The notes under the pieces: model-generated
Told to the model about the DNA's origin: nothing
Seen by the model: only the letters and a program-made list of their open reading frames with translations
Databases searched by the model: none
Shown here: positions 6,645-40,616 of the stretch, piece by piece
Numbering within the stretch: position 1 is the stretch's first letter
Layout of the letters: every line of letters starts with the position of its first letter
Position numbers and translations under genes: made by a program
Source: Bacilli bacterium
Lineage (GTDB): Bacteria > Bacillota_I > Bacilli_A > ML615J-28 > CAG-313
DNA: 64,000 bases
NCBI GenBank assembly: GCA_017463365.1
Contig: JAFTPH010000031.1
Coordinates: 9,072-73,071 of the forward strand
Direction of reading: 5' to 3'

Positions 6645-6866
6645 TAAAAACCAGTGATAAGGACTAGTAACTATTGAGTTTGGTTTAGAGAATGAGTGGT
6701 TGGTGAAAACTCACGCATACGATATAGTGAATCTACCTTTGAGGTGACATTGAAAAATGCTCCGGTTATAGGCCGTAATCTATTAAAAGTGAGAGGTAAC
6801 TCTAATAAGGGTGGTACCGCGGACAAGAAATGTTCGTCCCTGTTGTTTTTCAACGGGGATTTTTAT
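6645..6866 (+). promoter_or_regulatory. T-box riboswitch leader (serS, probable Ser specifier)
   Basis: Conserved T-box sequence AATAAGGGTGGTACCGCGG at 6804-6822. Terminator stem TCCCTGTTG / CAACGGGGA plus T-run at 6837-6866. AGAGA motif in stem I. Candidate UCU specifier at 6732-6734. Lies immediately upstream of serS. Confidence 0.85.
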
Positions 6867-6906: not shown

Positions 6907-8184
6907 ATGTTAGATATTAAATTTGTTAGACAAAATCCTGATCTTGTAAAAGAAAACATTAAGAAAAAGTTTCAAGATGCAAAACTTCCGCTTGTTGATG
7001 AAGCAATTGAACTAGATGTTAAAATTCGTGATGTTAAACAAGAAGGTGATACTCTTCGAGCAAGACGTAATGCTGCAAGTGGAGAAATTGGAAAATTAAT
7101 GCGTGAAAAACGTGTTGATGAAGCAATGGCTATTAAACAAGAAGTTGTAGAAATTAACGAAAAGTTAGTTTCTTTAGAAAAAGATGAAACTGAGCTTTCT
7201 GCAAGACTTAAGAAAATTATGATGACTATTCCAAATATCATTGATCCAAGTGTTCCAATTGGTAAAGATGATAGCGAAAATGTTGAAGTTAAGAGATATT
7301 TAGAACCACGCGTTCCTGAATTTGAAGTTCCATATCATTTAGATATCATTGAAAAAGTAAATGGTATTGACTTAGATGGTGCTAGAAAAGTATCAGGAAA
7401 TGGTTTCTACTATTTAATGGGTAATATCGCAAGACTACATTCTGCTGTTTTATCATACGCAAGAGACTTTATGATTAATAAAGGGTTTACTTATTGTATT
7501 CCTCCATATATGATTAGAAGTGATGTTGTAACTGGTGTTATGAGTTTTGCGGAAATGGACGCAATGATGTATAAAATCGAAGGTGAAGATTTATACTTAA
7601 TTGGTACTAGTGAACACTCAATGATTGGTAAATTTATTGATACATTAAACGATAAAGCTAAATTACCATATACATTAACAAGTTATTCGCCTTGTTTTAG
7701 AAAAGAAAAAGGGGCTCACGGAATTGAAGAAAGAGGAATTTACCGTATTCATCAATTCGAAAAACAAGAAATGATTGTTGTTTGTGAACCAGAAGATTCA
7801 TTTGATTGGTTTGAAAAACTTTACCAATATACAGTTGAATTATTTGTAAGTATGGAAATCCCTGTTAGAACACTTGAATGTTGTAGTGGAGATTTAGCAG
7901 ACCTTAAAGTTAAGAGTATTGACGTTGAAGCATGGAGTCCACGACAAAAGAAATATTTTGAAGTTGGAAGTTGCTCTAATTTAGGAGATGCACAAGCAAG
8001 AAGACTTGGAATTAGAATTAAAGGTGAAAATGGAAATTATTTTGCCCATACATTAAACAACACTGTTGTTGCTCCACCAAGAATGTTAATTGCTTTACTT
8101 GAAAACCACTTACAAGAAGATGGCTCTATTAAAGTTCCTGAAGTTTTAAGACCATATATGGGAGGACTTGATTACATTAGATAA
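6907..8184 (+). CDS. serS: Serine--tRNA ligase
   Basis: N-terminal coiled-coil arm (MLDIKFVRQNPD...) and class II core motifs (FRKEKGAHG, GSCSNLGDAQARRL). Confidence 0.97.
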   Translation: MLDIKFVRQNPDLVKENIKKKFQDAKLPLVDEAIELDVKIRDVKQEGDTLRARRNAASGEIGKLMREKRVDEAMAIKQEVVEINEKLVSLEKDETELSARLKKIMMTIPNIIDPSVPIGKDDSENVEVKRYLEPRVPEFEVPYHLDIIEKVNGIDLDGARKVSGNGFYYLMGNIARLHSAVLSYARDFMINKGFTYCIPPYMIRSDVVTGVMSFAEMDAMMYKIEGEDLYLIGTSEHSMIGKFIDTLNDKAKLPYTLTSYSPCFRKEKGAHGIEERGIYRIHQFEKQEMIVVCEPEDSFDWFEKLYQYTVELFVSMEIPVRTLECCSGDLADLKVKSIDVEAWSPRQKKYFEVGSCSNLGDAQARRLGIRIKGENGNYFAHTLNNTVVAPPRMLIALLENHLQEDGSIKVPEVLRPYMGGLDYIR

Positions 8185-18704: not shown

Positions 18705-19775
18705 ATGAATCTAGGAATTAAGATTAAAGAATTAAGAATAGAAAATAATTTAACTCAAGAAGATTTAGCAGAACAACTTGGTGTTTCTTTTCAAGCGGTA
18801 TCACGCTGGGAAACAGGGGTAACATATCCGGATATTACTTTATTACCAATACTAGCTAATATGTTTAATGTAACAGTTGATTATTTGTTAGATGTAGATA
18901 TATTAAAGAAAGAAGAAGAAATTAAAGAAATACTTAAAAAAGATGATGAACTTTCACATGTAGGAAAAGTAAAAGAAAGAGAAAGTCTTTTAGAACAAGC
19001 ACTTAAGAAATACCCAAATAACTGGGATTTTAAATCAAGATTATTAAGTGTGTATCATGTTCAAACTGCAAACGGTACTTTAGAAGATGAAATATATCAA
19101 AAGAAAGTTATTGAACTTGGTAATCACATATTAGAAAAATGTACTATTGATAGTAAACGTTATTTAGCTATTAATTCGCTAATATTTGTGTATGACTGGA
19201 TCGGAGAAACTAAAAAGGCCGAAGAAATAGCAAATAACCTTCCAGGAGACTTTTATGATACCAAAGAATACGCTATGATGACAATATCTCACGGGAAAGA
19301 GAACAATAAAGCGGTTAAAGATGTTATATATAGTGTTTTAGAAATGTTTGATGGTGCTGTTGCGTATTATAGAGGAAAAACTGCTGGAGAAGAACTAAAA
19401 GTATATTTAAAATATAAAGAATTAATTGATGTTATTTTTGAAGACGGAAACTATTTATTCTTTAATGAACGTTTAGCAGGCAATTATGAAAGATGTGCTA
19501 TCATTTGTGCGAGATTAAAAAATAAAGAAGAATGTCTTAAATATTTAAGTTTAGCACTTGATTACGCAAAAAAATTCGATGAAATTACAAAGGGAGCACC
19601 AACAACATATACAAGTTTATTAATGAATGGATTTGAAGAAAATCCAAGTAAATGGACAAAGACTAACGAAATTAGTTCTTTAGAAAGAGTAAAATCAAAC
19701 TTTGAAGAAAGCAAATGGACAGAATTTATTGTTAATGATGAGGATTATAAAAAAATAATAGAAAAATATATATAA
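18705..19775 (+). CDS. XRE-family HTH regulator with helical-repeat (TPR-like) C-terminal domain
   Basis: HTH_3 signature IKELRIENNLTQEDLAEQLGVSFQAVSRWETGVTYPDITLLPILANMF, followed by about 290 aa of all-helical sequence. Confidence 0.8.
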   Translation: MNLGIKIKELRIENNLTQEDLAEQLGVSFQAVSRWETGVTYPDITLLPILANMFNVTVDYLLDVDILKKEEEIKEILKKDDELSHVGKVKERESLLEQALKKYPNNWDFKSRLLSVYHVQTANGTLEDEIYQKKVIELGNHILEKCTIDSKRYLAINSLIFVYDWIGETKKAEEIANNLPGDFYDTKEYAMMTISHGKENNKAVKDVIYSVLEMFDGAVAYYRGKTAGEELKVYLKYKELIDVIFEDGNYLFFNERLAGNYERCAIICARLKNKEECLKYLSLALDYAKKFDEITKGAPTTYTSLLMNGFEENPSKWTKTNEISSLERVKSNFEESKWTEFIVNDEDYKKIIEKYI

Positions 19776-22124: not shown

Positions 22125-22493
22125 GTGTGTAAAAATAGAGAAATACCAGACGATATTTTAAAAAAATTATCTCAAGAAAAGAAAAAAATAATTAATATTC
22201 CTTATATAAAAAGGGTTGTTGGAGAGACTATTGAATCTATGGAAAAAGATGTAATAGAGAAAATTTATCTTTTTGGTAGTTATGCAAGAGGAGAAGAAAC
22301 AAGTAATAGTGACATAGATTTAAGAATAGAGGGAAAAGATGGGATGAGCTTATTTGATGTTGGATACATTATTTATGAAGTAGAAGAAAAAACATGTAAA
22401 AAAGTAGATGTAATATCAGGGGACAAAATAGATGAAGTGGTATTAAACGAAATAGGAAGGGACGAAATTTGTATATATGAACAAAAAAGATGA
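22125..22493 (+). CDS. MNT-type nucleotidyltransferase antitoxin
   Basis: LFGSYARGEETSNSDIDL minimal nucleotidyltransferase motif. Overlaps the downstream HepT gene. Confidence 0.75.
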   Translation: MCKNREIPDDILKKLSQEKKKIINIPYIKRVVGETIESMEKDVIEKIYLFGSYARGEETSNSDIDLRIEGKDGMSLFDVGYIIYEVEEKTCKKVDVISGDKIDEVVLNEIGRDEICIYEQKR

Positions 22494-22803
22494 ACAAATA
22501 ATTTATCATATAAATAATCATTATCAAGAATTCAAATTGATAAAAAACTATGAAGATTTTGTTTCAAATAATATTATTAAAAAAGCAATAATATTAGATT
22601 TGATTCAAATTGGATATAATGTAAATAAACTTAGTTTTGAATTTCAAAAGCAAATAAATAAGATAAACTTAAGGGGAGTTGTTGGTATTAGAAACCATTT
22701 GGTTCATGGATATGGAACAATCGATGATAAGATTGTTTGGACCGCAATAAAAGAAAATTTGCCAGATTTCATTTTTGAAATAAACAATATTAATTTAAAA
22801 TAA
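22477..22803 (+). CDS. HepT-like HEPN (DUF86) toxin
   Basis: Rx4HxY motif (IRNHLVHGYG), small size, overlap with the MNT gene. Confidence 0.85.
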   Translation: MNKKDEQIIYHINNHYQEFKLIKNYEDFVSNNIIKKAIILDLIQIGYNVNKLSFEFQKQINKINLRGVVGIRNHLVHGYGTIDDKIVWTAIKENLPDFIFEINNINLK

Positions 22804-22914: not shown

Positions 22915-23037
22915 ATGAATTTAAGCAAAAATATTAAAGAATTAAGAATTAAAAATAAGTATACCCAAGAAGAACTTGCAGAAAAATTAAATGTAAGTGT
23001 TCAAACTATATCTCGTTGGGAAACGGGAATTTCTTAG
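22915..23037 (+). pseudogene. N-terminal fragment (40 codons) of an XRE-family regulator, truncated by the element insertion
   Basis: MNLSKNIKELRIKNKYTQEELAEKLNVSVQTISRWETGIS then TAG. It stops exactly where paralogs continue with [YF]PDI. Confidence 0.85.
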
Positions 23038-25097: not shown

Positions 25098-25132
25098 ATG
25101 TTGTATTTTCAAAAATCTTTACGATTTACTAG
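25098..25132 (+). promoter_or_regulatory. Island motif copy P1 (GTTGTA-N13-TTACGATTTACTAG)
   Basis: ATGTTGTATTTTCAAAAATCTTTACGATTTACTAG. One of four near-identical bipartite sites in the element. Confidence 0.45.
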
Positions 25133-25198
25133 TTGTAGAATAAGTTTAAAACATTGTTAGCTTGTAAATTGTATATAAAGATAAATTTTTTAATTGGT

Positions 25199-25241
25199 GG
25201 TTGTAATTTTGACTTATTTTTACGTGATACATAGTGAGGAG
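25199..25241 (+). promoter_or_regulatory. Island motif copy P2, directly upstream of the sigma-factor gene
   Basis: GGTTGTAATTTTGACTTATTTTTACGTGATACATAGTGAGGAG. Confidence 0.45.
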
Positions 25242-25283
25242 TAAGTTAATAAAAGCGCTCCTCGTTATTCGTAGGAGGGAAAA

Positions 25284-26012
25284 ATGAATACACTAATAAA
25301 AAAAGTATTAGAATATCAACAGAAAAATGATGAATTTCTATTTGAAGATATCATTGATGAATTAGATAAGTTAATTAATATTCAATGTTCAAAAATTGTA
25401 AAATACTATAAAGAAGATTTAAAACAAGAATTATTATTTGAAATATTCAAAGAAATACCATATTATAAACCTGAAAAAGAACTAATTAAAGATAATCTAG
25501 AATTTAACGAAATTATTATAATATTAAAAAACATAACTAAAAGTAAATATTATAAATCATTTAAGAAGAAGTACAAATTTGAGGGTGACTTATTTAATTT
25601 AAAAGACATCACAACAATGATTAATGTAATTAATGAATTTTATTTATTTTGCAATGAAAATCAATTTAGAAAGTATATAGATGTTATATGTGAACGTAGA
25701 AGGGTTGATTTTTGTAGAAAGTATAAAGTAAGTGAAAACTCGAAAAATATTAGTTTAAATGTTGTAGCAGATGACGGTGAAGAATTTCTTTATAAATTAA
25801 TTAATAAAACATCTGAAATTAAAAATTATGAAATAGACTATAGCTTATTATCTAATAAAGATGTTAAATTTCTGAAATTATTTTTTGATGGAAATGAAAA
25901 ATTGACTGAAAAAGAAGTTGCTAAAAAATTGGGTGTTACTCAGCAAGCTGTTAGTAGTATGTTAAAAAGAATTAGAGAAAGATACAAAAATAAATTTAAT
26001 AACTTGAATTAG
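25284..26012 (+). CDS. Sigma-70-family RNA polymerase sigma factor (region 2- and region 4-like segments only)
   Basis: The N-terminal segment resembles sigma region 2 (FEDIIDELDKLI...YYKEDLKQELLFEIFKEI). C-terminal region 4 HTH LTEKEVAKKLGVTQQAVSSMLKRIRERYK. Confidence 0.6.
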   Translation: MNTLIKKVLEYQQKNDEFLFEDIIDELDKLINIQCSKIVKYYKEDLKQELLFEIFKEIPYYKPEKELIKDNLEFNEIIIILKNITKSKYYKSFKKKYKFEGDLFNLKDITTMINVINEFYLFCNENQFRKYIDVICERRRVDFCRKYKVSENSKNISLNVVADDGEEFLYKLINKTSEIKNYEIDYSLLSNKDVKFLKLFFDGNEKLTEKEVAKKLGVTQQAVSSMLKRIRERYKNKFNNLN

Positions 26013-26047: not shown

Positions 26048-26092
26048 AATGTTGTATTTTTAAAATTTCTTACGATTTACTAGGCGAGGAGG
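26048..26092 (+). promoter_or_regulatory. Island motif copy P3
   Basis: AATGTTGTATTTTTAAAATTTCTTACGATTTACTAGGCGAGGAGG, ending about 10 nt before the ATG at 26102. Confidence 0.45.
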
Positions 26093-26409: not shown

Positions 26410-26455
26410 CCCGTTGTTTTTTTGAATTTTCTTGCATGTTACTATAGTGAGGAGG
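26410..26455 (+). promoter_or_regulatory. Island motif copy P4, upstream of the holin-to-Rhs operon
   Basis: CCGTTGTTTTTTTGAATTTTCTTGCATGTTACTATAGTGAGGAGG. Confidence 0.45.
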
Positions 26456-26541: not shown

Positions 26542-26832
26542 ATGGATTTTACAAGTGTACCTATTATAGTTGTATGCTGCTATATCATAGGAGAAATTTA
26601 CAAAGTCTTATTTAAGAATAAGCAAGAATCATACAAACTAATACCAATAGTAATGGCTATCATTGGAGGATTATTAGGGATTATTATTTATTTAACAAAT
26701 CCAGAAATGATTTTAAATGCAGAAAATATTTGGATAGCATTAGGTATTGGTATTGTAAGTGGTGCCAGTTCTACTGGTGCAAACCAAATTATAAAACAAA
26801 TTTTTAAAAAAGGAGAAACAAAAAATGAGTGA
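26542..26832 (+). CDS. Phage-type holin
   Basis: 96 aa with three hydrophobic helices and the charged C-terminus GIVSGASSTGANQIIKQIFKKGE, typical of clostridial-phage holins. Confidence 0.7.
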   Translation: MDFTSVPIIVVCCYIIGEIYKVLFKNKQESYKLIPIVMAIIGGLLGIIIYLTNPEMILNAENIWIALGIGIVSGASSTGANQIIKQIFKKGETKNE

Positions 26833-27940
26833 ATTTGTAGATAGAAAAGGAACAAATTTAAATAAAAAGAAATTAAAAATTGTAGATATTGTTAGAGATG
26901 TATCTACAGGTGAAATTAGTGAACTTTATGTAGAGGAATTTAGAGATGATTCTGTTGGATTAGAAAGTGTTGGAACAGCAATAACAGCAGCAAATTTAAA
27001 TACTATTATTAAAAGTATGATTGAAAGTGAAGTGTATCATCAACTAAACAAAACAGATGAAGAAAAAGTGACAGAAGATGCACAAAAGTTGACTATTGAT
27101 ACATTAGTTGATGATAATTTTGATCTACCTTCTGTTGGGTATAATGGATCAACTATAACTTGGTCAGTAGTATCTGGAACTGCTATTAATATTTCTTTAA
27201 GTAAAGCAATTGTAGTTAGAGGAACAAGTAATTCAGTTGTAACATTAAAAGCAGTGATTAAAAATGGAACAGCAACAGCAACGAAGAACTTCTCTGTAAC
27301 AGTGTTAGCTCGAGAAAAAACTGATACAGAAAGAGTAAATGCTGATGCTGAAGCAATCAGTGTTCCAAGTTCAACAACTAGTTCGTTTACTTTATCAACA
27401 TTAGGTACAAATGGTTCTACAATCACATGGAGCGTTTATTCTGGAACTGGTATTGTAGTAAATAATGGAATGGCATATGTAACTAGAGCATCCACAGATA
27501 GTGATGTGACATTAAAAGCTATTGTTAAATATAATACAACATCAGTAACAAAATATTATAACGTTACAGTTTTAGCAGAGGAAGTTGTAGAAGTAACAAC
27601 AGACTTTTCACCAAAAACATTCAGCACTTCATGGACACAAGAATATGGTAATTTACGTTCAGCTAACTTAACAATTGGATCAAGTGATACAAGTGCATTA
27701 TATATAGATGTAGAAAATGATGATAGTGCAAGTATTAATGTTGTTGTAAATACAAATAGTTCTAGTTTAGTAAGACTAACAGTTTCAGAAACAAGTGGAT
27801 TAAATTCTCTTGTTGGATATACAACACCTGTATTTACTTTTTATGTACATGTATATTTAGATAATGATAGAAGTGTAAAATTGGGTACATTAACAGGTAC
27901 TGTAACATATCATTTTTCATCAGTTACACCAGATGATTAA
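26825..27940 (+). CDS. Tail-fibre-like protein with two Ig-like repeats
   Basis: N-terminus FVDRKGTNLNKKKLKI...VGTAITAANLN resembles Firmicute phage fibre proteins. Two roughly 62-aa repeats (27125-27310 and 27389-27577) with G.NGSTITWSV.SGT...VTLKA.....T..TK...VTVLA. No signal peptide. Confidence 0.45.
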   Translation: MSEFVDRKGTNLNKKKLKIVDIVRDVSTGEISELYVEEFRDDSVGLESVGTAITAANLNTIIKSMIESEVYHQLNKTDEEKVTEDAQKLTIDTLVDDNFDLPSVGYNGSTITWSVVSGTAINISLSKAIVVRGTSNSVVTLKAVIKNGTATATKNFSVTVLAREKTDTERVNADAEAISVPSSTTSSFTLSTLGTNGSTITWSVYSGTGIVVNNGMAYVTRASTDSDVTLKAIVKYNTTSVTKYYNVTVLAEEVVEVTTDFSPKTFSTSWTQEYGNLRSANLTIGSSDTSALYIDVENDDSASINVVVNTNSSSLVRLTVSETSGLNSLVGYTTPVFTFYVHVYLDNDRSVKLGTLTGTVTYHFSSVTPDD

Positions 27941-27961
27941 TAAATAAAGGAGGAAATACAA

Positions 27962-29335
27962 ATGAAATTTTTAAAATTAAAAGAAAAATTAAGAAATAAA
28001 TACCAATCATTAGATAATGGTAAAAAAGGATTTAAAAGAGTAAAAAGTAAAATTTTTGAAAATAAAAAAGAAATGAATGCAGATAATTTAAAAATTATTG
28101 GGATTACGGGTAGTGCAGGAAAATCAACGACAGCTTTAATAGTTCATGAATATTTAAAAATGTTAGGATATAAATCAGTTTTATATTCAAGTGCTAAAAT
28201 TGATTCTCCAGCATCAATTATTAATCCAGACGAAGCATGTGAAATTTCGTTTAATTCTGAAGAGGAATTATTAGATATTATTGAGGAAGTTGAAGCATAC
28301 GGAGCAGATTTTCTTGTTTTAGAAGTAAATGAAAGTACTATCGAAAAAGGTATTACAAAGGAAATTCCATTTGCGGTTAGAGCATTAACAAATTTAAATC
28401 CTAAACATAATTTAGAACGCTATTCTGATACTGAATATGTAGAAATTAAAAAAGCATTTTTTAAAGATATAGAAGATGATTGTAAGTGTGTTCTAGGTTT
28501 TCAAAGTTACAATAAAGAACTATTAGATGAATTATTAAAATTAAATGATTTTGAAAAATTAGTATTTACAACTAACTATATTGCAAATGTTAATGGAATT
28601 GATCCTAATATGGCAACATGTTTATTAACTGGTTTAGAATCTACTTTAGATGGATTAAAACTTAACATTAAAGTTAAAGGTGAAAAATATAAATTAGAGT
28701 CTAAATTAATGATGTCATATAATGCATTGAATTTTGTTGGTGCTATAACAATTTTAGAAGCATTAGATATTTTAGATGTTAAACAATTTGAAAAATGTAT
28801 TTATGATATTAATATTCCGGGTCGTGCTGAAGTATTTAAAGCAAATGGAAGATTAATAGTTGTTGATACACATTTACCAAAAATGCTTGAGTGTCTAAAA
28901 AGTTTTAAAGATAATGGATTAATTAGCAAAATTAAAGTAGTAGTTGGATCAATGGGACATGGCTTCAAAACATGGGAAGATAGATTTAATTCTGAACAAT
29001 TTAAAGAGATACACAAGGAAAATAAAAAATTCGCGATGGGATTATTAAAACAATATGCAGATTTTGTATATTTAACAGAAAACGATAATGCTGCAGAAAA
29101 TGTATTAGATATTTGCCTAGAACTTCAAGGATATCTAGAAGGTGATGTAGCATCTGTAATTGTTGAAGATAGAAAAGATGCTATTAGTCAAGCAATTGTT
29201 GAGTCTAAAGAAGGAGATGTAATTTTTATTTCTGGGCGTGGTAATAGAAGAGTATTATGTAATACAAAAACTACAATGAAATTATTAAAAGATAGTGAAG
29301 TTGTAAAAGAAACATTAATTAAAATAGGATGGTAA
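27962..29335 (+). CDS. Divergent Mur-ligase-family protein
   Basis: P-loop IIGITGSAGKSTT about 45 aa from the N-terminus, LVLEVNES, TNLNPKHNLERY in place of TN...DHLD, and C-terminal GDVIFISGRGN. Confidence 0.75.
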   Translation: MKFLKLKEKLRNKYQSLDNGKKGFKRVKSKIFENKKEMNADNLKIIGITGSAGKSTTALIVHEYLKMLGYKSVLYSSAKIDSPASIINPDEACEISFNSEEELLDIIEEVEAYGADFLVLEVNESTIEKGITKEIPFAVRALTNLNPKHNLERYSDTEYVEIKKAFFKDIEDDCKCVLGFQSYNKELLDELLKLNDFEKLVFTTNYIANVNGIDPNMATCLLTGLESTLDGLKLNIKVKGEKYKLESKLMMSYNALNFVGAITILEALDILDVKQFEKCIYDINIPGRAEVFKANGRLIVVDTHLPKMLECLKSFKDNGLISKIKVVVGSMGHGFKTWEDRFNSEQFKEIHKENKKFAMGLLKQYADFVYLTENDNAAENVLDICLELQGYLEGDVASVIVEDRKDAISQAIVESKEGDVIFISGRGNRRVLCNTKTTMKLLKDSEVVKETLIKIGW

Positions 29336-29339
29336 TTTT

Positions 29340-32300
29340 ATGGATAATAGTAAAATTAATCAAACGGAATTAAGTTATAAATGTGGTGCAGGTGAGTCAA
29401 AGGTTAATTTATATACTGGAAGAATGGTTTTTAACGTTATTGATGTAAATGTAGGGACAGATTCTTATGAATTAATTTTATATCATATCTATAATTCGCA
29501 TTTAGGTTTACCTGCTGGTGTAAATACTAAAGTAGGTTCTAAATGGAAATTAAATCTACAAGAGTATATTTATAAAGTTGGTACTGATTATTATTATATT
29601 GATGCTTCAGGAATGAAAATTAACTTTAAGTACCTATATGAAAATACATATTATGATACAACAGGTTTAGGAATGCAATTAAAATTATTAACTAATCAAA
29701 TCGAAATTATAGATATGGCAAACAATAAAAAAATATTTAGAAATAATCGATTAGAAGAAATAATTTCTGGTGAAAATAGCTCAATTATAAAAGAATTAAT
29801 ATATACGGATAATAAATTAACATTAATTAAAGATACAAGAAAACCAGACACAAATATTAAATTAGAGTATAATAATGATTTATTAAGTAGTATAATTGTA
29901 ACAGTAAAAAATAAAGAGCAATTAAGACTTAAATATTATTACAAAGAAAATCAATTAGTAATGATTTCTAAAATTGTTGATGGATTTGAAAAAGTTAGTA
30001 CTTTGTTTAGATATACTGGTGATAATTTAACATATGCCGTTTGCTATCAAAATAAATCAGCACTTAAATTCACATATAATTCAGCTGACAAAGTAATTAG
30101 AGTTGATACAGGTGTTGCGAAAGTTAAAACAACGAAAATTACAAAAAATAATGTATTTGTAGGGGAAAGTATTTATTGTGGCGAAAAAGATTACGTTGGT
30201 GATGTAACATATACTAATAATTATGAAATTGATGATTGTATTACGGAATATGGACAAGATTTATTAACATATAACATTATTGAATATAATGGAACTAATA
30301 GTATTGTGGAAAATGAAAAAGGTTTAAAAAATGTATATTACTTTAATGAAAATGGATTTATGGTTTCTATTTTAGAATCAGTTAATACATCAAATACAAA
30401 TTTAAAAACATTAAAGAAAATGCCGGGAAAATCTATGCTAAATGAAAACGGAGGGGATGATTCTGAAATAATTAATACTCAAAATGCTTTCAATTTGACA
30501 ACCATTTCGGAAATATCAACTTCTACAATAATGAGCGGTAGAAAAAAATCATTAGATGATTACCGTGGGAGAGAATGCGGTAATTATATAAATTATATAT
30601 GTAGTTTTTGGTTAAAATTATTAGAAGAAGTGGATAATTCAAAAGTACAATTGATTATTAATGATGATGATGATAATAAAAGTATTGTTTCATTTGATAA
30701 TTCTGCAGTTGACGCTTGGCAAGAAGTAAGAATGCCAATAAAAATTTTAGATGATAATATTAAGAGTATAAAACTAGAATTTTTAGAAAAAACTGAAAAA
30801 CATATAAAAATTGTTGATATGAAATTATACTATAGTTCAACATATAAAACTATGTTAACTAATGGAACAACATGGGCTTGTCTAGATGAAATACAAAAAA
30901 TTATTTACATTAATCAGAATGGTATAGAAGATGAAATAATATTAGATGATGATAATTTTGTTACCGAAAAAGATTTACAAATGACATATATGCACAAATT
31001 TAAATTATATGGAAATTCTAATAATTCAAATGATTATTATCCTTTATATTTAAATGATGCCACGAAACAATTAATTGTTAGTAGTTCGAAATTTTATTAT
31101 AAAATAAATGATGAAGTAAAAGAATTTCCTGTATTATTTGGGAATGATGACTATTCAACTAAAATTAAAGTTCAAAATACAAGGGCACAATATTTTATTG
31201 AATCATTATCGCCTGATGGGGATGTGTATATTTATAATATTCCACATTTTTTGAAATCAATTAATATTGATGGTGTATTTTATGATTGTTTATGCAATAT
31301 TACTGAAGGGAATAAGAATATAAAAGGTTCTAAAGAACATGAGTGCAGTTTTAAAGTTGAATGTGTTGATTTGAAGGGCAAAAAAGTTTTAACTAGAGAT
31401 GAATATGGCGTTGTAAATATATATAAATACAATAATAATGGTATTTTAAAAAATAAAATATTAACTAGTGAAAAAAATACTTCAAAAAAAATTGTGTATA
31501 ACATAGAAAGGGAATTAAATATCGAAAATGATTCAAATGAGTATTTGGTAAAAAGTGAAGATAATAGTAAAATGCAAATAAATACTAAGTATGATAAAAA
31601 AGGTAACCTAATATGTACATCAATGTTTGGATTAGAAAACCAAGATTCACAAGAATATGTTCAACAATATCATTATTCTAAATTAGATAATTTTCTTTTA
31701 TCAGTAAAAGATAATTTGGGAGGGATTAATAATATTAAATATGATGAAATGGGAAGAATCATTGAAATATCTCCTAAAAAGTATAATGATGCAAATTATT
31801 ATGGTTTTAAATTTAAATATGATAATTTTGGTGAGCCTACACATTTATATTATACATTTAAACAAGGAAATGATATCATTGATATAAAATTAGTAGAAAA
31901 AATAATTGATCGAACTAATAATTCTATCATAACTAAATATTATAGGGATGATTCTGATGAACTTAACGCAGATATTAGTAAAACAGTTTTAGATTTGTAT
32001 GGAAACATTAAGGAAATTATAATTGGTGATAAAAAGGTTACATATAAAAATCATAATTTATGGGAAAGTCCTCATTCTGCTAATGTTGAAACTATTGAAG
32101 ATGAATTAGATAATAAAACATATACATATAAATATGATGATTTTAATAATTTAACTAACTATTCTATTAATGATGAAAATGGAACAATTAGTGTTTATAA
32201 ATCAGACAATGATACTATTGAATGTGAAGAGATTTTTAATGAAAGCCATTTTAATCCTTCTGCTGGTATTGCTACTATAAAATATGAAGAAGATGTTTTA

Positions 32301-34577
32301 TTTTCTCCAAGAATTAAAGAAACAACACATCAAATATATTATGCATATCAGGGAAATCCGACAACATATGATTATGATGACCTAGGAAGGGTAAATAAAA
32401 AATATGTTAGTTATATAGATGGATTTAGTAATTTTGTAAATATGACACAAAATATAAATTTTTTAGAAAAGACTAATTGCATAAATAAAATTACTACTTC
32501 ATTTGTAGATGAAAATAAAAATAGTACAACATTTCAATCGGAATATAAATATAATCAATTTGGAAATTTAGAAGAAGATCATGTATCTATTGATGATAAT
32601 ACTAATAAATTTGTTAGAAAATATAAATATAATGAAGCTAATCAAATAATACGTGAAGAAATAGTTAATAGCAATATTACATATGAATATTATTATAATA
32701 ATGATGGTAGTATTGATTATATTAATACAAATGGGATTCAAAAAAATTACAATTATCAAAATGGGAGAATTTCATTAATTACTGAAGGTGGACTGATAAA
32801 AATTCCTTTAACATATGATAATATTGGAAATGTTAAAACTTTTGGGGCAAATTCATATTCTTGGACTAGAGGAAATTTATTGGCATCTTTTTGTAATAAT
32901 AATAGTATTACTAAATATCATTATAATGGATTTAATAAAAAATATAAAAAAGAATTGACTAATGGAATAACAATAAATTATAATTATGATAATGATAAAA
33001 TTATTTCTGAAAATTGGAGCAATGGAAATCAATTAAAATTTAGTTATGATGCTACAGGAATAACAGGTTTTTTATATAAAGAAAATGAAGGGATAATGAA
33101 TAATTATTATTATTTTGTTAAAGATGCTTTTGGTAGTGTTATATCATTGATTTATGATGGAAAAGAAGTTGCACATTATGAATATGATTCATTTGGAAAT
33201 TGTACTGTAACCAACTATACGAAGGAAAACATTGGTGATATCAACCCTATTAGATGGAAAGGAATGTATTATGAAATTGAAAGTGATGTCTATTTAATTG
33301 GAAATGATACATATTGTCCTTCATTAAGACAAAATATATCAATGAAATTATTAGAAGATATTGCAACTAGTGATTATGAAATTTATAATATATATCCTTA
33401 TCAATTAACAAATTCAAATATGTTAAATATGACTTTTGAACAAAATAATTTATTATCTTCGTTAGAATTAGTTTATGAACCAGAAAAAAAATCAAAATGG
33501 ACGAGATTCTGGGAGAAATTCTGGAGGAGTATTTTTGGGAAGATTATATCAGTTTGTTTGGCAATAATCGCTTTTGCACTTACCTGGTGGCAAGGTGGTT
33601 GGTTAGGAGTGTTATTTTTAGCAATTCCATTGGTTCTTACTTTAGGAGTGGGATGCTTAGCAGCAGGAATTGCAAGTAAACGAACAGGCAAAGGTTTTTG
33701 GAACGGTTTTGTTAATTATTTAAATAGAAACTGGTCACAAGTTGTAGGAACAGAAATGGCATTGTATTTGGTTTCGTTTGGTATTTCAAAAATAATGAAA
33801 TTAGGAACAGCAGCTGATTGTTTTAAAGCAGGTACATTGGTTCTAACATCTATCGGATTGATAAAGATTGAGGATGTTAAGGCGGGAGACAAAGTATGGA
33901 GTTATAATGAAGATACTAAAGAAAAGGAACTTAAAACAGTAAAAAGATTATTTATTAATAAAACTAAAGAATGGTTATACATAACTATAGTAAATAACGA
34001 GACTATGCAAGAAAATGAAGTTGTATGTACAAAAACACATAAAATTTACATTAAGAATAAAGGATGGATAAAAGCTAGTGAAATACTTGAAAATGATGTG
34101 GTTTTATTATATAATAACACTGAGGGAAAAGTGATAAAGAAGGACTTAAGAAAGTTAAGTCAAGAAGAATATACATATAATTTTGAGGTTGAAGATAATC
34201 ATAATTATTATATAGGAAATGATAAAATTTTAGTACATAATAAATGTAAGCCAGAATTTGAAGTGTTAGAGTTTGATGAACGTGCTATTGCGATGGCAAG
34301 AGAAGGTAATCCAACTTTTCAAACTTTTAGGAGAAGATTATTTAAATATCAAAATGAAATAGATCCTACTATGTTCCATACATATAAAAAAGGTTTAAGT
34401 CCAATAATCAATAATAAAAAGATAATTCTTCATCATCCAAAAGGACGAGTTGGTCCAAACTTATATAATGTTGTGGGGGTTACGTACCAACAACATCTTA
34501 GTATTCATGCTATAATTGGCTATCGAAATGCCCAGTGGGATGATGTAATATATCATTTAGGTAAAGGAGTATTTTAA
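29340..34577 (+). CDS. Rhs/YD-repeat polymorphic toxin with TM segment, pretoxin HINT domain and LHH-type HNH/EndoVII nuclease C-terminus
   Basis: Many YD repeats (YKYNNNG, TKYDKKGN, IKYDEMGR, YDYDDLGR, YKYNQFGN, YEYDSFGN). Rhs-core end NPIRWKGMYYE at about 33241. Hydrophobic helices at about 33530-33790. HINT from Cys1494 (33819) to HN1633-1634 (34236-34241). LHH motif at 34428-34436. Confidence 0.9.
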   Translation: MDNSKINQTELSYKCGAGESKVNLYTGRMVFNVIDVNVGTDSYELILYHIYNSHLGLPAGVNTKVGSKWKLNLQEYIYKVGTDYYYIDASGMKINFKYLYENTYYDTTGLGMQLKLLTNQIEIIDMANNKKIFRNNRLEEIISGENSSIIKELIYTDNKLTLIKDTRKPDTNIKLEYNNDLLSSIIVTVKNKEQLRLKYYYKENQLVMISKIVDGFEKVSTLFRYTGDNLTYAVCYQNKSALKFTYNSADKVIRVDTGVAKVKTTKITKNNVFVGESIYCGEKDYVGDVTYTNNYEIDDCITEYGQDLLTYNIIEYNGTNSIVENEKGLKNVYYFNENGFMVSILESVNTSNTNLKTLKKMPGKSMLNENGGDDSEIINTQNAFNLTTISEISTSTIMSGRKKSLDDYRGRECGNYINYICSFWLKLLEEVDNSKVQLIINDDDDNKSIVSFDNSAVDAWQEVRMPIKILDDNIKSIKLEFLEKTEKHIKIVDMKLYYSSTYKTMLTNGTTWACLDEIQKIIYINQNGIEDEIILDDDNFVTEKDLQMTYMHKFKLYGNSNNSNDYYPLYLNDATKQLIVSSSKFYYKINDEVKEFPVLFGNDDYSTKIKVQNTRAQYFIESLSPDGDVYIYNIPHFLKSINIDGVFYDCLCNITEGNKNIKGSKEHECSFKVECVDLKGKKVLTRDEYGVVNIYKYNNNGILKNKILTSEKNTSKKIVYNIERELNIENDSNEYLVKSEDNSKMQINTKYDKKGNLICTSMFGLENQDSQEYVQQYHYSKLDNFLLSVKDNLGGINNIKYDEMGRIIEISPKKYNDANYYGFKFKYDNFGEPTHLYYTFKQGNDIIDIKLVEKIIDRTNNSIITKYYRDDSDELNADISKTVLDLYGNIKEIIIGDKKVTYKNHNLWESPHSANVETIEDELDNKTYTYKYDDFNNLTNYSINDENGTISVYKSDNDTIECEEIFNESHFNPSAGIATIKYEEDVLFSPRIKETTHQIYYAYQGNPTTYDYDDLGRVNKKYVSYIDGFSNFVNMTQNINFLEKTNCINKITTSFVDENKNSTTFQSEYKYNQFGNLEEDHVSIDDNTNKFVRKYKYNEANQIIREEIVNSNITYEYYYNNDGSIDYINTNGIQKNYNYQNGRISLITEGGLIKIPLTYDNIGNVKTFGANSYSWTRGNLLASFCNNNSITKYHYNGFNKKYKKELTNGITINYNYDNDKIISENWSNGNQLKFSYDATGITGFLYKENEGIMNNYYYFVKDAFGSVISLIYDGKEVAHYEYDSFGNCTVTNYTKENIGDINPIRWKGMYYEIESDVYLIGNDTYCPSLRQNISMKLLEDIATSDYEIYNIYPYQLTNSNMLNMTFEQNNLLSSLELVYEPEKKSKWTRFWEKFWRSIFGKIISVCLAIIAFALTWWQGGWLGVLFLAIPLVLTLGVGCLAAGIASKRTGKGFWNGFVNYLNRNWSQVVGTEMALYLVSFGISKIMKLGTAADCFKAGTLVLTSIGLIKIEDVKAGDKVWSYNEDTKEKELKTVKRLFINKTKEWLYITIVNNETMQENEVVCTKTHKIYIKNKGWIKASEILENDVVLLYNNTEGKVIKKDLRKLSQEEYTYNFEVEDNHNYYIGNDKILVHNKCKPEFEVLEFDERAIAMAREGNPTFQTFRRRLFKYQNEIDPTMFHTYKKGLSPIINNKKIILHHPKGRVGPNLYNVVGVTYQQHLSIHAIIGYRNAQWDDVIYHLGKGVF

Positions 34578-35176
34578 TGACAAAAGAAGAACTTATAAAA
34601 GAATTAATTGATTTTGTTGAAGGAAAAATAGAAGTAAATATTATCTATGAAGACCTTCTTAAAGGAAAATTTGATAGTTTGTTAGATGTATATTTAGGTG
34701 ATAAAATTGGAATGTATGGAAAAAGTAGTGTTTTAGAATGCCTTAAAACGTGTGGTATTAAAAATTCACATGCTAGATATGGTTTTTGGCATGCGGTAGA
34801 AGCATATTTATATTTTAATGGGTACACATATAGTCCATCAAAAAAATTATATAATGAATGGTCATATAAAGTTGATATTCAACCATCATACATTTATATA
34901 GAAGATGATGTAATACTAAATAAATATATTAATGAGGCACCAAAAGGATTAAATAAAACCGAAACAAAAAAATGGATTAAAAATAGAATTAAACAAGATT
35001 TTAAATATGATAAAACTCCACCTAGATGGGTTCAGAATCCAGAATGGCCAATAGTAAATGGTGTACCATTAATATTTAAAAATCAAACTAAAATGACTTT
35101 AGATGATGAAAGAGTATATTACACTTTTTATCATCCCCAAACGTTAGAAGAAATAGTCATAGTCCAATTCTATTAA
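34577..35176 (+). CDS. Putative cognate immunity protein
   Basis: TAATG overlap with the toxin stop codon. 199 aa, cytoplasmic. Position is typical of polymorphic-toxin immunity genes. Confidence 0.6.
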   Translation: MTKEELIKELIDFVEGKIEVNIIYEDLLKGKFDSLLDVYLGDKIGMYGKSSVLECLKTCGIKNSHARYGFWHAVEAYLYFNGYTYSPSKKLYNEWSYKVDIQPSYIYIEDDVILNKYINEAPKGLNKTETKKWIKNRIKQDFKYDKTPPRWVQNPEWPIVNGVPLIFKNQTKMTLDDERVYYTFYHPQTLEEIVIVQFY

Positions 35177-35390
35177 TATAATAACGGATTTTATATTAAA
35201 ATTTTTGATTATATGTTAAAATCAAATGTAATATTATAAAATTGAATTTAAGAATTGCTATGGATTTAATGTTGCATTTCGCCTTACTTTATAGGCAGGA
35301 TAAGGAAAAAGCAACACTTCGTTGCATTTTCGAATTTCTTGCAAACTGACACGCTCAGCTTTACGCTTTTGTCCGATTATATTGTAGTTA

Positions 35391-35421
35391 AAGGAGTTAA
35401 CTTTTTTGGTTAACTCCTTTG
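35391..35421 (+). terminator. Terminator-like hairpin after the immunity gene
   Basis: AAAGGAGTTAAC-TTTTTT-GGTTAACTCCTTT. Confidence 0.55.
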
Positions 35422-35487
35422 CTTATTTGTAAGGCGAAATGCTTTGTCCACTAAAAAAATTGCCAAATTTCGTTCGACAATTTGGTA

Positions 35488-35860
35488 AAAACGTTAAACT
35501 TTTTAACTAAGACTTTCCATATATAGTGTGGGAAGTTTTTTTATTTTTAAAAATATTTTTAATTTTTTTATAAAAAACGTTTAACTTTTGACTCCTAACT
35601 TTCCATATATAGTGAGGGGACATTTTAAATTTTTTAAAATATTTTTTAAAAACACCCGTACAAAACACGAGTTTCTTTCCATATATATTGAGGGGTTATT
35701 TTTAATTTGAAAAAAAATTTATAACTTTTTTTATAAAAACGTCTAAGTTTTTGATTATAACTTTCCATATATAGTGAGGGATCATTTTAAAATTTTTAAA
35801 AATATTTTTAAAAACACCCCTACAAAACACAAAAACTTTTCCATATATATTGAGGGACTA
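35488..35860 (+). repeat. ORF-free tandem array: five copies of CTTTCCATATATAGTGAGGG in about 162-bp double units
   Basis: Cores at 35514-35533, 35600-35619, 35676-35695, 35762-35781 and 35837-35857. Spacing alternates 86/76/86/75 nt and the flanks are also conserved. Confidence 0.9.
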
Positions 35861-35962
35861 TATTTTATTCTCTCATAAATTGTGGATTAATTAAAGGAGA
35901 GTGATAAAAATGATTTAACTTAATTAAAAAGATTAAAAAAATAAGGAAAGGAGGAATGAAGA

Positions 35963-36628
35963 ATGGATCAATTTACATTTTATGATTTATATTATGAAAC
36001 ATTTAATGGATTAAAAGATGAAGAGATAGGTAGATTTATTAAAAGAATATGTAATTATGCTTTGTATGATTTAGAAGATGAAGTAAGTAAAAATGATACA
36101 GAAAATTGTTTATTTGAAATAATTTTTCCAACTTTAAAAGAAGCAACATCATTAGAAAAACAAGGAAAAGTTCCGTATTATTTAAATAGAAGTATGAAAC
36201 ATTTTACTTTTAAAATAGCATATGCAAATATAATTAAAACAATTAAAGATGAAAAGTTATCTGGTAAATTTATAAAAGCAATATGTGCTTATATGTTTGA
36301 TGATGAAATACCTGTTGATTTAACTCCACCTATTGATACATATTTTAAATTATTTAAGAAAAGTTTTGACTTAACTAAAACAAGAATTAAAAGTGGACAT
36401 AAAGGTGGAAGTAAAAAGAAAAAAGAAACTATAAATAAAAAAATAGAAACTTTAGAAGATTTTTTAAATAATAATCCTTACATTAATAATGATGTTTATA
36501 GTAAAAGTTTAATATTAAATAAAGATTATAGTCTATTAAATGAAAGACTAAAAACAAATTTAAAATATAAAGATGAAAAAAGTTTATATATAATCTTAAA
36601 AAGTTATGATGAAATTATAAAAGATTAA
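35963..36628 (+). CDS. Hypothetical protein with internal duplication (DUF6291-like)
   Basis: MDQFTFYDLYYETFNGLKDEEIGRFIKRICNYAL and a second KLSGKFIKAICAYMF unit, then a basic KSGHKGGSKKKK stretch. Confidence 0.4.
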   Translation: MDQFTFYDLYYETFNGLKDEEIGRFIKRICNYALYDLEDEVSKNDTENCLFEIIFPTLKEATSLEKQGKVPYYLNRSMKHFTFKIAYANIIKTIKDEKLSGKFIKAICAYMFDDEIPVDLTPPIDTYFKLFKKSFDLTKTRIKSGHKGGSKKKKETINKKIETLEDFLNNNPYINNDVYSKSLILNKDYSLLNERLKTNLKYKDEKSLYIILKSYDEIIKD

Positions 36629-36674
36629 CAAGCAAATGTGTAAGCAAAACTATTTGTTTTGATTTATTATTTAT

Positions 36675-36692
36675 GGCAAATTTGCCTTTTTT
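36675..36692 (+). terminator. Rho-independent terminator
   Basis: GGCAAATTTGCC followed by TTTTTT. Confidence 0.7.
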
Positions 36693-36835
36693 AAAAGCAG
36701 GATAAGTCGTTGCCACAACTGATGATACCAGTTATGACAACTCGACGCCGAAATGAATTTCGGAAGCAAGTAGGACACCTACTTCTAGTTATTAGATAAG
36801 ACTTTGAATATGATGAAACTAATTAATTTAATCCC

Positions 36836-36864
36836 TTGACATTATCGTATTACTACGATATAAT
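36836..36864 (+). promoter_or_regulatory. Consensus sigma-A promoter with palindromic spacer
   Basis: TTGACA, 17-nt spacer, TATAAT. The palindrome ATCGTA-TTAC-TACGAT spans the spacer and the first T of the -10 box. Confidence 0.65.
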
Positions 36865-36893: not shown

Positions 36894-37235
36894 ATGGATT
36901 TTATTATGTATGAAGAAAAAACATTTGAAGAAATACTAGAGTATCAAAAGAATAATAAACCTATAATTCAAAAGTATGGTAAGTATGGGAATTTAGCTAA
37001 AAAGTATTTAGAAGAATATAACTTTGGTAAATACTTAGTATTAGGTGGAGATTTACCAGAATACTTACATAACATTGATAAACAAGCTAATGAACTTTAT
37101 AATGTAATATATGATAAACTTTCAAAGAAAAAAGAATATCAAAAGACCCAAGACTATATTAAAAACATACAAATAGAAAATGAAATTCAGAAATTAATTG
37201 AAGAAGAAATATTAAATGAATTAGTATATGTGTAG
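36894..37235 (+). CDS. TnpV-like protein
   Basis: KYGKYGNLAKKYLEEYNFGKYLVLGGDLPEYLHNIDKQANE...EEEILNELVY follows the pattern of TnpV proteins from Tn4451-type serine-recombinase elements. Confidence 0.6.
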   Translation: MDFIMYEEKTFEEILEYQKNNKPIIQKYGKYGNLAKKYLEEYNFGKYLVLGGDLPEYLHNIDKQANELYNVIYDKLSKKKEYQKTQDYIKNIQIENEIQKLIEEEILNELVYV

Positions 37236-37887: not shown

Positions 37888-39582
<1,695 letters not shown>

Positions 39583-39656: not shown

Positions 39657-40616
39657 TTTCCAGATATAAGCATTTTGCCGGATATCGCTAAAATTTTTGA
39701 AGTCTCTATTGATTATTTATTGGGGTATGGAAAAACGTTATCAGATAAAGAATGGGTAAATATGTATGATAATATATCTTCATTTATCCAAATTGGAAAA
39801 AATGAAGAGTGTTTAGAATATTTAAAAGAAATGTTGGAAAAATATCCTGATGATGAAAAGGTACAAATGTGGTATGCACATATGTGTAGACAAGTGCCAC
39901 TTGATAAAGAATTACTAAATAGTGCTATCAAAATATATGAAAAAGTAATTCGTACCTCACGTGATGAAAAAACTAAAAAACAAGCGTATAATGGACTATT
40001 TTATGTATATATGAGGCTTGAAAACAAAGAAGCAATGAAAGATGTATATGATAAGTATCTAAAAAACATTGTTGGCCCCGATTATTATGAAATGTACTTC
40101 TTGGAAGGACTTGAGAAAACAAAGTATTTACAACATCGTCTAGAATTATCGTTACATGATGTCTTTAATACAATTAGACAGCTTAGATTTGGTGATTATT
40201 ATACGAAAGAAGAGAAAAATATATTATTAAAAAAATATTTAGATATTATGGAAATAATGTATGAAGAGCATGATTATGGATTTGATAACTGGAATATGTA
40301 TGAAACATGTAGGGAAATGCTTATGAGATTCAATGAGTTAAATGAGGAAAATAAATGTTTAGAGTATATTGAAAAAGCAACAAATTACGCCATTGATTAT
40401 GACAATATAGATGTAAATGAAAAAACAAAATCTAAACTATTTAATACAAGAGATCTATCTAAAGTTCAAGTATCAATGAGTGGATATAAAGAACCAGGAA
40501 ATATGAGTTTTGAATTAATAAATATTTTAAAACGAGAAGAATTTGATAAATATAAAAATAATAATATATATATTTCTTGTATTGAAAGACTAAAAAAAGT
40601 AGCAAAGAAATATTAA
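39657..40616 (+). pseudogene. C-terminal part of the split XRE/TPR regulator gene
   Basis: In-frame FPDISILPDIAKIFEVSIDYLLGYG, the second half of an HTH_3 domain, followed by about 300 aa of helical domain. It has no start codon or SD of its own at the domain boundary. Confidence 0.8.

Follow-up and report, generated by a model that had tools for sequence, protein, structure and literature searches.

A conserved, modular repeat array next to a DUF6291 gene in a family of small integrative elements

The 64-kb window analyzed here, a stretch of contig JAFTPH010000031.1 from a Bacilli bacterium, carries an array of five tandem units at positions 35488-35890 of the plus strand, each built around a 20-bp core, CTTTCCATATATAGTGAGGG, and followed by a gene coding for a DUF6291 protein. 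This array is a cis element, conserved and modular, that is shared by a family of small integrative elements. It belongs to a mobility module composed of DUF6291, TnpV and a recombinase, and not to the toxin and sigma-factor cargo of the genomic island in which it lies. It resembles iteron arrays, leader attenuators and promoter clusters, and meets the defining features of none of them. The function that we tentatively favor, as plausible rather than probable, is that of a sense-strand leader or attenuator gating the mobility module; that the array is transcribed, that it acts as RNA and what factor recognizes it are points that we infer from sequence.

Allowing at most two mismatches, five copies of the core were found on the plus strand. 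They start at 35513, 35599, 35675, 35761 and 35837, differ from CTTTCCATATATAGTGAGGG at 1, 0, 1, 0 and 2 positions, respectively, and together span 35513-35856. No further copy occurs in the window and none in 100 shuffles (0 expected), which bears out the five cores reported in a first-pass annotation of this DNA. Start-to-start distances of 86, 76, 86 and 76 bp and the TRF result (period 162, 2.2 copies, 82% match) likewise agree with the duplicated unit of about 162 bp described there. The flanks are of two types, AAAACGT..AAC..TTTTGA for type A (units 1, 2 and 4) and AAACACCC(G/C)TACAAAACAC for type B (units 3 and 5); their order is A, A, B, A, B instead of the odd/even alternation first perceived. 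The units are laid out as follows.

35488-35573, plus strand: unit 1, type A flank, core at 35513-35532 (variant ..AGTGTGGGAAG), 13-14-bp stem followed by T7, terminator-like
35574-35649, plus strand: unit 2, type A flank CGTTTAACTTTTGAC, core at 35599-35618
35650-35735, plus strand: unit 3, type B flank AAACACCCGTACAAAACAC, core at 35675-35694 with T at core position 14
35736-35811, plus strand: unit 4, type A flank, core at 35761-35780
35812-35890, plus strand: unit 5, type B flank, core at 35837-35856, DnaA-box-like TGTGGATTA at 35881-35889

The claim that the array holds no open reading frame (ORF) above 30 codons fails in its literal form, as mechanically called ORFs of 33-53 codons (ATG, GTG or TTG starts) overlap it on both strands; these are AT-rich and of low complexity by inspection and are regarded as putatively non-coding; the description of an ORF-free tandem array otherwise holds. 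No ATG follows the GAGG blocks, as had been stated, and 106 nt separate the end of core 5 (35856) from the ATG at 35963, where about 105 nt had been announced. To define the anatomy of the units, 34 of them from 7 loci were aligned on the start of their purine block. An A/T tract at -52 to -38 and TTTTG at -27 to -23 are common to the units, and TGAAC, GTAAAC or CGTnnAAC lies near -34 to -29 in many of them. Downstream of TTTTG come a pyrimidine block, an A/T-rich segment with (T)A(T)AGT at its end, the purine block GARGGG and then runs of T or A/T. The promoter-like layout noticed earlier is thus real in the sense that the units are promoter-sized and combine an A/T tract, an upstream box at a fixed distance and a purine block.

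The array travels with the mobility module. Three loci (L001, L010 and L011) encode a DUF6291 protein 95% identical to that of the window and carry the same array upstream of its gene; in L001, the cargo ahead of the five units is not RHS but a phospholipase C/ricin-lectin toxin. Where the DUF6291 protein is 45-63% identical (L003, L007/L009, L012, L013, L014 and L018), tandem units 55-100 bp apart lie upstream of its gene: L003 and L014 have 2, L007 about 7, L013 about 11 and L018 about 12. Three units are found in L019 (38% identical) and one in L022 (34%). Close relatives have fewer units than the window, with four in L010, three in L029 and two in L035, from which it follows that whole units are gained and lost. 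The comparison of copy number among related elements that the first-pass annotation called for therefore gives 1 to 12 units, varying by whole units. A special, terminator-like first unit is also present in L001, L010, L011 and L042.

The recombinase of these array-DUF6291 relatives is either of the serine or of the tyrosine type, and the cargo found with the module across L001, L007, L013, L014, L022, L028 and L042 comprises a phospholipase C and ricin-lectin toxin, RHS toxins, DNA methyltransferase/GmrSD/AAA, a Metallophos-STAND NTPase, a reverse transcriptase and BrxL/Fic. L012 consists only of the array, DUF6291, a 79-amino-acid (aa) ORF and an integrase, leaving no room for cargo, and its host-type neighbors are a glutamine synthetase and an ANTAR response regulator. 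A metagenome scan with the exact core further retrieved L028 and L039-L042, which carry the core with the same A and B flanks, without DUF6291 or TnpV, about 550 nt upstream of serine recombinases 37-54% identical to that of the window; single matches in high-GC DNA look like chance. Considering these contexts, the array is neither a generic repeat nor tied to the sigma and toxin cargo, and it does not strictly depend on DUF6291. The module (array, mini-ORF, DUF6291, with or without TnpV, and a serine or tyrosine recombinase) is an apparent small cargo platform in gut, rumen and other metagenomes, and looks like one that swaps toxin and defense genes.

Constraint on the array was measured on a single pair, L001 and the window, between which the array shows 96.2% identity, against 84-89% for the flanking non-coding DNA, and the DUF6291 coding sequence 95.8%, with differences at 17 of 222 third positions. 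Within the array, differences amount to about 7% in the A/T spacers and about 1% in the boxes and cores, a pattern suggestive of purifying selection on the latter. Swaps of G and T at core position 14 between orthologous units suggest gene conversion or slippage. Such swaps, together with unit numbers that change by whole units, are what would be expected of a functionless tandem duplication or of a selfish dispersed repeat of the REP (repetitive extragenic palindromic) or MITE (miniature inverted-repeat transposable element) kind. We consider this explanation very unlikely: the window contains no copy outside of the array, the low-GC metagenome matches that could be judged share the module context while high-GC singletons look like chance, the boxes and cores are far better kept than spacers or flanking non-coding DNA, and the design persists at about 35-63% protein identity. 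A generic REP- or MITE-like repeat, the outcome named beforehand as fatal to a specific role, is therefore not what was found.

Between the toxin cargo and the recombinase gene, the array is embedded in a series of other elements.

35262-35385, plus strand: block A, conserved non-coding block, upstream boundary of the conserved mobility module
35389-35421, no strand assigned: strong terminator hairpin (14-bp stem and T run) between the toxin/immunity cargo and the array
35460-35488, plus strand: TTCGTTCGACAA framed by the conserved inverted repeat CCAAATT-N9-AATTTGG (35463-35485), immediately upstream of unit 1
35894-35918, plus strand: Shine-Dalgarno (SD) sequence AAGGAGAG and 2-codon mini-ORF ATG ATT TAA (35910-35918), about 45 nt before the DUF6291 start
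35963-36628, plus strand: DUF6291 gene (221 aa; Pfam PF19808, E 5e-18)
36664-36790, plus strand: block B, second copy of the block A type, matching the block between array and recombinase in L040 and L042

The case for a leader begins with the complementarity of the pyrimidine and purine blocks of the units. With G·U pairs allowed, stems of at least 5 bp number 40 on the plus strand of 8 non-redundant arrays, where shuffles give 23.7±3.5 (none of 200 with as many as 40), and 20 on the minus strand; stems restricted to Watson-Crick pairs show no excess (13 vs 9.1). Arms defined by composition alone pair more stably with their own partner than with the arms of other units (means of -5.63 and -4.95 kcal/mol, permutation p 0.005). 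Examples of stems are GCCCTTT/GAAGGGC, CTTTCTA/TAGAGAG and TGTCCTTG/TAAGGGCA, and several, such as the first and the last of these, are closed by G-C pairs contrary to the composition trend. In a terminator scan, unit 1 passes (35509-35539 followed by T7) and units 2-5 do not; the upstream hairpin at 35389-35421 also passes. The purine arm of unit 5 can instead pair with TCTCTCA further downstream (35851-35875). The mini-ORF of L003 has as its SD the very purine arm of the last unit, which implies that at least this unit must be transcribed.

Several of the neighboring elements are shared with relatives. An equivalent terminator precedes the arrays of L013 and L018 (the arrays examined for it were those of the window, L013 and L018). 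The inverted repeat around TTCGTTCGACAA is kept just before unit 1 in L001, L010, L029, L035, L040 and L042, with TTTCGTTCGACAA retained in L040 and L042; TTCGTTCGACAA includes TTCGACA (35473), the complement of the Spo0A-box-like TGTCGAA. In L001, L003, L007, L012, L013, L014, L022, L040 and L042, the last unit likewise gives way to a strong SD sequence and a mini-ORF, 2-11 codons long, which takes the forms ATGCGCTGA, ATGTGCTAA and ATGATATAG and reaches 11 codons in L003. Two small hairpins that exclude each other, AAGAC..GTCTT and GCCG..CGGC, come after this mini-ORF in the Clostridia relatives.

We favor a leader or attenuator because the pairing is specific to strand and unit, because one unit (in L003) supplies an SD and because the first unit is terminator-like. 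According to this model, the array would be transcribed in the sense direction and would act chiefly as RNA. Each core would give rise to a short stem-loop whose pyrimidine arm, CUUUCC, hides the SD look-alike GAGGGG; unit 1 would be a real terminator, and the last unit would run into the true SD and the 2-codon mini-ORF. The upstream terminator and the chain of units would block read-through out of the toxin operon, and termination or attenuation, along with the access of ribosomes to the mini-ORF, would set the level of DUF6291 and, in relatives, of the downstream excision genes. The invariant core is probably read by a factor encoded elsewhere, either by the host or by a helper element. Leaders that sequester an SD, which include the 5' SD-like stabilizer elements of Gram-positive mRNAs and the leader-peptide/terminator region of Tn916, are alike in their sense-strand pyrimidine arm opposed to an SD-like purine block, their terminator-like first element and their short leader ORF before a mobile-element gene. 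The array differs from them in its 5-12 reiterated stem-loops, its long A/T spacers, the lack of a start codon behind most of its units and the position of the mini-ORF after the hairpins.

Several observations weigh against a leader. The stretch from the terminator (35421) to the array yielded no promoter for a sense transcript. The stems of the window have only 5-6 bp and 10-nt loops and are marginal on their own. The strand asymmetry, dependent on G·U pairs, partly reflects the T-rich block that precedes a G-rich block and could have another cause. All 20 bp of the core are invariant, loop included, which argues for sequence-specific recognition over bare structure, and so does the retention of the core in elements that lack DUF6291 and whose recombinase shares only 37-54% identity with that of the window. 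An RNA hairpin leaves unexplained why the A/T tracts and the TTTTG box at its fixed place are conserved. Finally, L040 and L042 have an array and a mini-ORF with no protein gene before the next non-coding block.

Conservation in sequence, beyond structure, speaks for a protein-binding array at the DNA level. The cores would then be iteron-like binding sites of DUF6291 or of a protein from the host or a helper, and the array would be a replication origin, an oriT (origin of transfer) mimic, or a packaging or partition site of the excised circle, acting on double-stranded or transferred single-stranded DNA. As in the iteron-type origins of theta plasmids and of Staphylococcus pathogenicity islands and phage-inducible chromosomal islands (SaPI/PICI ori, whose repeats flank an AT-rich tract), there are near-identical direct repeats of about 20 bp (at least 3 of 17-22 bp in iteron-type origins, five in the window) in AT-rich DNA, an adjacent gene for a putative nucleic-acid-binding protein and, in some members, a DnaA-box-like site. 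The latter, TGTGGATTA, matches at 8 of 9 positions right after the last unit in the window. At the equivalent place in L028, L039, L040 and L041, which lack DUF6291, a perfect 9/9 match, TTATCCACA, is accompanied 111 bp further on by an 8/9 match, TTAGCCACA. Variation from 2 to 5 units among near-identical arrays is usual for repeat arrays, and the island ORFs that were scanned contain no recognizable Rep gene and no relaxase domain (Pfam, NCBIfam and PHROGs; a few small ORFs were outside the scan), which makes a cis site for a helper plausible.

The spacing speaks otherwise: classical iterons are phased at about 22 bp, or about two helical turns, whereas the repeats described here stand 76-86 bp apart. 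L013 and L018 mix at least 4-5 core classes, which could hardly be bound by one initiator; most arrays lack DnaA boxes, with none in those of L001, L003, L007 and L012-L019; and the hairpin potential is strand-specific and G·U-dependent. The neighboring protein is no known Rep and is dispensable for the core, identical in L028 and L039-L042 without DUF6291. Overall, a DNA-level binding array seems to us somewhat unlikely. Iterons of the excised circle, one of three roles suggested by the first-pass annotation, hence fit in their near-identical direct repeats and not in their spacing, and are still a live rival.

DUF6291 itself is a small, probably nucleic-acid-binding protein. Its AlphaFold2 model (predicted local distance difference test, pLDDT, of 83) comprises two tandem helical domains, a Lys/Gly-rich linker and a small C-terminal domain. 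Neither this full-length model nor that of the N-terminal domain (pLDDT 77) has a PDB fold match with E <1. A Foldseek search of BFVD returned weak local matches to DUF6291 phage proteins, one "replisome organizer" and one "DnaD domain" protein, the last two over 65 aligned residues with a root-mean-square deviation of 2.2-2.7 and an E-value of about 1; these lend some weight to a role at the DNA level. The only matches in a PDB sequence profile search, to tau, are confined to the Lys/Gly-rich linker and were dismissed as spurious. No family beyond PF19808, and in particular no known Rep, ParB or terminase family, was matched in Pfam, NCBIfam or PHROGs, and PADLOC assigned neither DUF6291 nor TnpV nor the unknown island proteins to a defense system. 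Searches of phage and plasmid collections, by tblastn with DUF6291 and by DNA similarity with positions 35300-36700, gave no match, nor did a pattern scan of IMG/VR. With E up to 0.001, homologs fall into about 1,100 clusters when grouped at 50% identity; they come almost all from metagenome assemblies or metagenome-assembled genomes (animal and human gut, other samples). A literature search found no paper on DUF6291 and no description of the array or of the function of DUF6291. In distant relatives, a protein of conserved size (460-490 aa) is encoded 3' of DUF6291 (L014, 5731-7131; L022, 7781-9169; L024, 7683-9152); none of the three matches PHROGs, that of L014 has no Pfam match and that of L022 no PDB sequence match.

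Blocks A and B, about 110-125 nt each, are the other recurrent non-coding component of the module. Block A aligns with L001, L010, L029 and L035 although the cargo upstream differs; its invariant stretches are TAGGCAGGATAAG and CTTGC..AACTG..CAG, and a hairpin CTGA..TCAG becomes CTGGG..CCCAG in relatives. L040 and L042 each have two copies, one inverted and one direct, on either side of the array. The blocks have no Rfam match, RNAalifold gives blocks A and B a weak consensus of -4.4 kcal/mol, and they could be a non-coding RNA or a protein-binding site. Rfam reports nothing meaningful in 35150-36000 at E up to 10.

The layout of the units also invites a reading as tandem promoters that sigma-A would not recognize. 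Each unit of about 80 bp, the length of an RNA polymerase footprint, would comprise a UP-like A/T tract, a -35-like box, a spacer of 16-17 nt and the core, would start transcription near the purine block and would be read by an alternative sigma factor of the host or by an activator or sigma factor supplied by a helper, so that the mobility genes fire when this factor appears. The shared A/T tract and TTTTG box suit this arrangement, the TGAAC, GTAAAC or CGTnnAAC sequences resembling the -35 of ECF (extracytoplasmic function) sigma factors. A promoter is needed between the terminator and DUF6291, where the units are the sole conserved sequence and where L022 has a single one. Canonical sigma-70-type promoters are missing or depleted there, with none on the plus strand within 35488-35860 and 0 matches in the L013 array where 2.5 are expected. 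An identical core across elements of the same host lineage would fit a host or helper factor, and the 9-mer ATAGTGAGG recurs at two sites upstream of the sigma-like gene and holin region of the island. No known sigma consensus fits the units, though, the distance from TTGAC(T) to TATAGT being 14 nt instead of the 16-18 nt of the sigma-70 criterion; the -35-like AAC varies among unit classes and the -10-like hexamer often ends in G. As many as 12 promoters in tandem would be unprecedented, the purine arm of L003 must lie within the transcript as the SD of the mini-ORF, and complementarity between cognate arms would not be needed. We regard such promoters as unlikely.

Consensus sequences for sigma-54, sigma-B, the sporulation sigmas (E, K, F, G, H), ECF sigmas, CodY and Spo0A boxes were compared with the units by eye. 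Resemblances are partial and inconsistent, such as GG-N10-GC in a few units of L012, L018 and L019 or the TTCGACA box at 35473, and none is consistent from unit to unit. Read on the minus strand, the core at 35599-35618 (CCCTCACTATATATGGAAAG) contains CTCACTATA, positions -9 to -1 of the T7 class III promoter; this likeness was judged a coincidence because no gene for a single-subunit RNA polymerase was seen.

A narrower proposal, favored by the first-pass annotation, links the cores to the sigma-like protein of the island itself (25284-26012), for which they would be either promoters or a titrating decoy, the protein driving the toxin/holin operon. Sequence kinship does exist: TTTTGACT and ATAGTGAGG are common to the array and to sites upstream of the sigma-like gene (25207/25231) and of the holin region (26444), as had been noticed, and there are 4 exact copies of ATAGTGAGG in the window where 0.32 would be expected, while TTTTGACT overall is at chance level. 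The unit 2 type in particular locally resembles the site upstream of the sigma-like gene, with TTTTGACT and ATAGTGAGG in the same order and a spacing off by 1 nt, and L014 encodes a different sigma-region-4 protein beside DUF6291. Four related sites (25099-25133, 25199-25240, 26049-26090 and 26411-26455) precede the sigma-like gene, a small coiled-coil gene and the holin region. Common to them, by eye, are GTTGT, 14-15 nt, TACGAT/TACGTG/TGCATG and then ..TAG..GAGGAGG, and they probably form the regulon of the sigma-like factor, which would then be autoregulated. At 25235, GAGGAG can pair with CTCCTC at 25260, just ahead of the SD of the sigma gene.

This four-site motif is absent from the array; scanned as GTTGT-N14-16-TRCRT, it matches at 25200 and 26413, that is, at two of the four sites, and nowhere in the array. 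Furthermore, no sigma-like gene was seen in the examined DNA of L003, L007, L012, L013 and L019, and the sigma-like proteins of the window and L014 are not homologous beyond the helix-turn-helix (HTH). A strong terminator separates the array, located within the conserved mobility block, from the cargo, and the array recurs behind unrelated cargo. A tie to the sigma factor and toxin operon of the island is thus most improbable, and the decoy is the least supported of the three roles that had been proposed.

Since nothing in the module resembles a known function in replication, transfer or packaging, the array is the best candidate site for the control or the movement of the island. It could conceivably be a multi-input helper sensor or a cis-mobilization site, each unit class being recognized by the transcription, transfer or packaging machinery of another helper, an idea that we hold to be quite unlikely. 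If true, an island devoid of relaxase and Rep would be switched on or mobilized when any of several helpers is active, and the mixed unit classes, the gain and loss of whole units and the identical core across elements with unrelated recombinases would be explained. Solving the array would give DUF6291 a role and define an undescribed non-coding element, and could show how toxin islands stay silent or get mobilized.

Other tandem non-coding systems offer partial parallels. Sponge RNAs such as CsrB and RsmZ and tandem small RNA genes such as Listeria LhrC1-5 also repeat a short structured motif in one orientation in non-coding DNA; the array lacks their GGA-loop motif, a GC-rich terminator per unit or any Rfam match, and its units are too short for a promoter and a small RNA. 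ToxI-like type III toxin-antitoxin loci and CRISPR arrays share tandem non-coding repeats directly upstream of a protein gene. In contrast to these, the units are composite rather than contiguous identical repeats, and their "spacers" are mutually similar, low-complexity A/T tracts of two types. No cas genes and no ToxN or Abi proteins were found, and DUF6291 has no significant PADLOC or Pfam match to a ToxN/AbiE-type endoribonuclease.

The island as a whole, of about 16.6 kb, lies inside a split gene for an HTH-TPR (RRNPP-like) regulator. The left part of this gene (22916-23037) encodes the first ~40 codons (HTH) and the right part (39675-40616) the remaining 313 codons, whose alignment starts at residue 47 of an intact paralog (18705-19775); the split places the limits of the island at about 23.04-39.67 kb. 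Two unknown proteins come first, followed by the sigma-like protein, the holin (26542) and the toxin cargo. Downstream of the cargo are found block A, the terminator, the array, the DUF6291 gene, block B, a sigma-70-type promoter, tnpV, two small ORFs and the recombinase. The cargo and the genes of the mobility module other than DUF6291 are positioned as follows.

26825-35176: toxin cargo, with an aBig_2 protein, a Mur-ligase-like protein, a 1745-aa RHS/PT-HINT polymorphic toxin (29340-34577) and a 199-aa probable immunity protein (34577-35176)
36836-36864, plus strand: sigma-70-type promoter ahead of tnpV, TTGACA-17-TATAAT (12/12 positions)
36894-37235, plus strand: TnpV homolog (PF14198, E 3e-14)
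37891-39582, plus strand: TnpX-type large serine recombinase with DUF4368 (domain search)

The closest described family is that of the Tn4451/Tn4453 integrative mobilizable elements, including Tn6104-6106 of Clostridioides difficile (PMC3158075). The island resembles them in its TnpX-type large serine recombinase (DUF4368) at one end, its TnpV homolog and its accessory cargo. It differs in that no TnpZ/Mob relaxase, among the scanned ORFs, and no RS_A oriT were found and in that the DUF6291 gene and repeat array are not described in that family; moreover, relatives pair the DUF6291 module with tyrosine integrases. The literature on integrative mobilizable elements provided only general context on Tn4451 and Tn6104-6106.

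The remainder of the window is a low-GC Firmicutes chromosome with mfd, spoVT, a T-box leader and an apparent ribosomal-protein operon, the latter judged by gene sizes. Within the island, the placement of a sigma-like regulator and a holin ahead of the toxin cargo recalls large clostridial toxin loci. Directly left of the insertion site lies a nucleotidyltransferase/HepT-like toxin-antitoxin pair (22125-22803). The T-box leader at 6645-6844 (122 bits), upstream of a gene at 6907, is the only Rfam match of the window above its gathering score.

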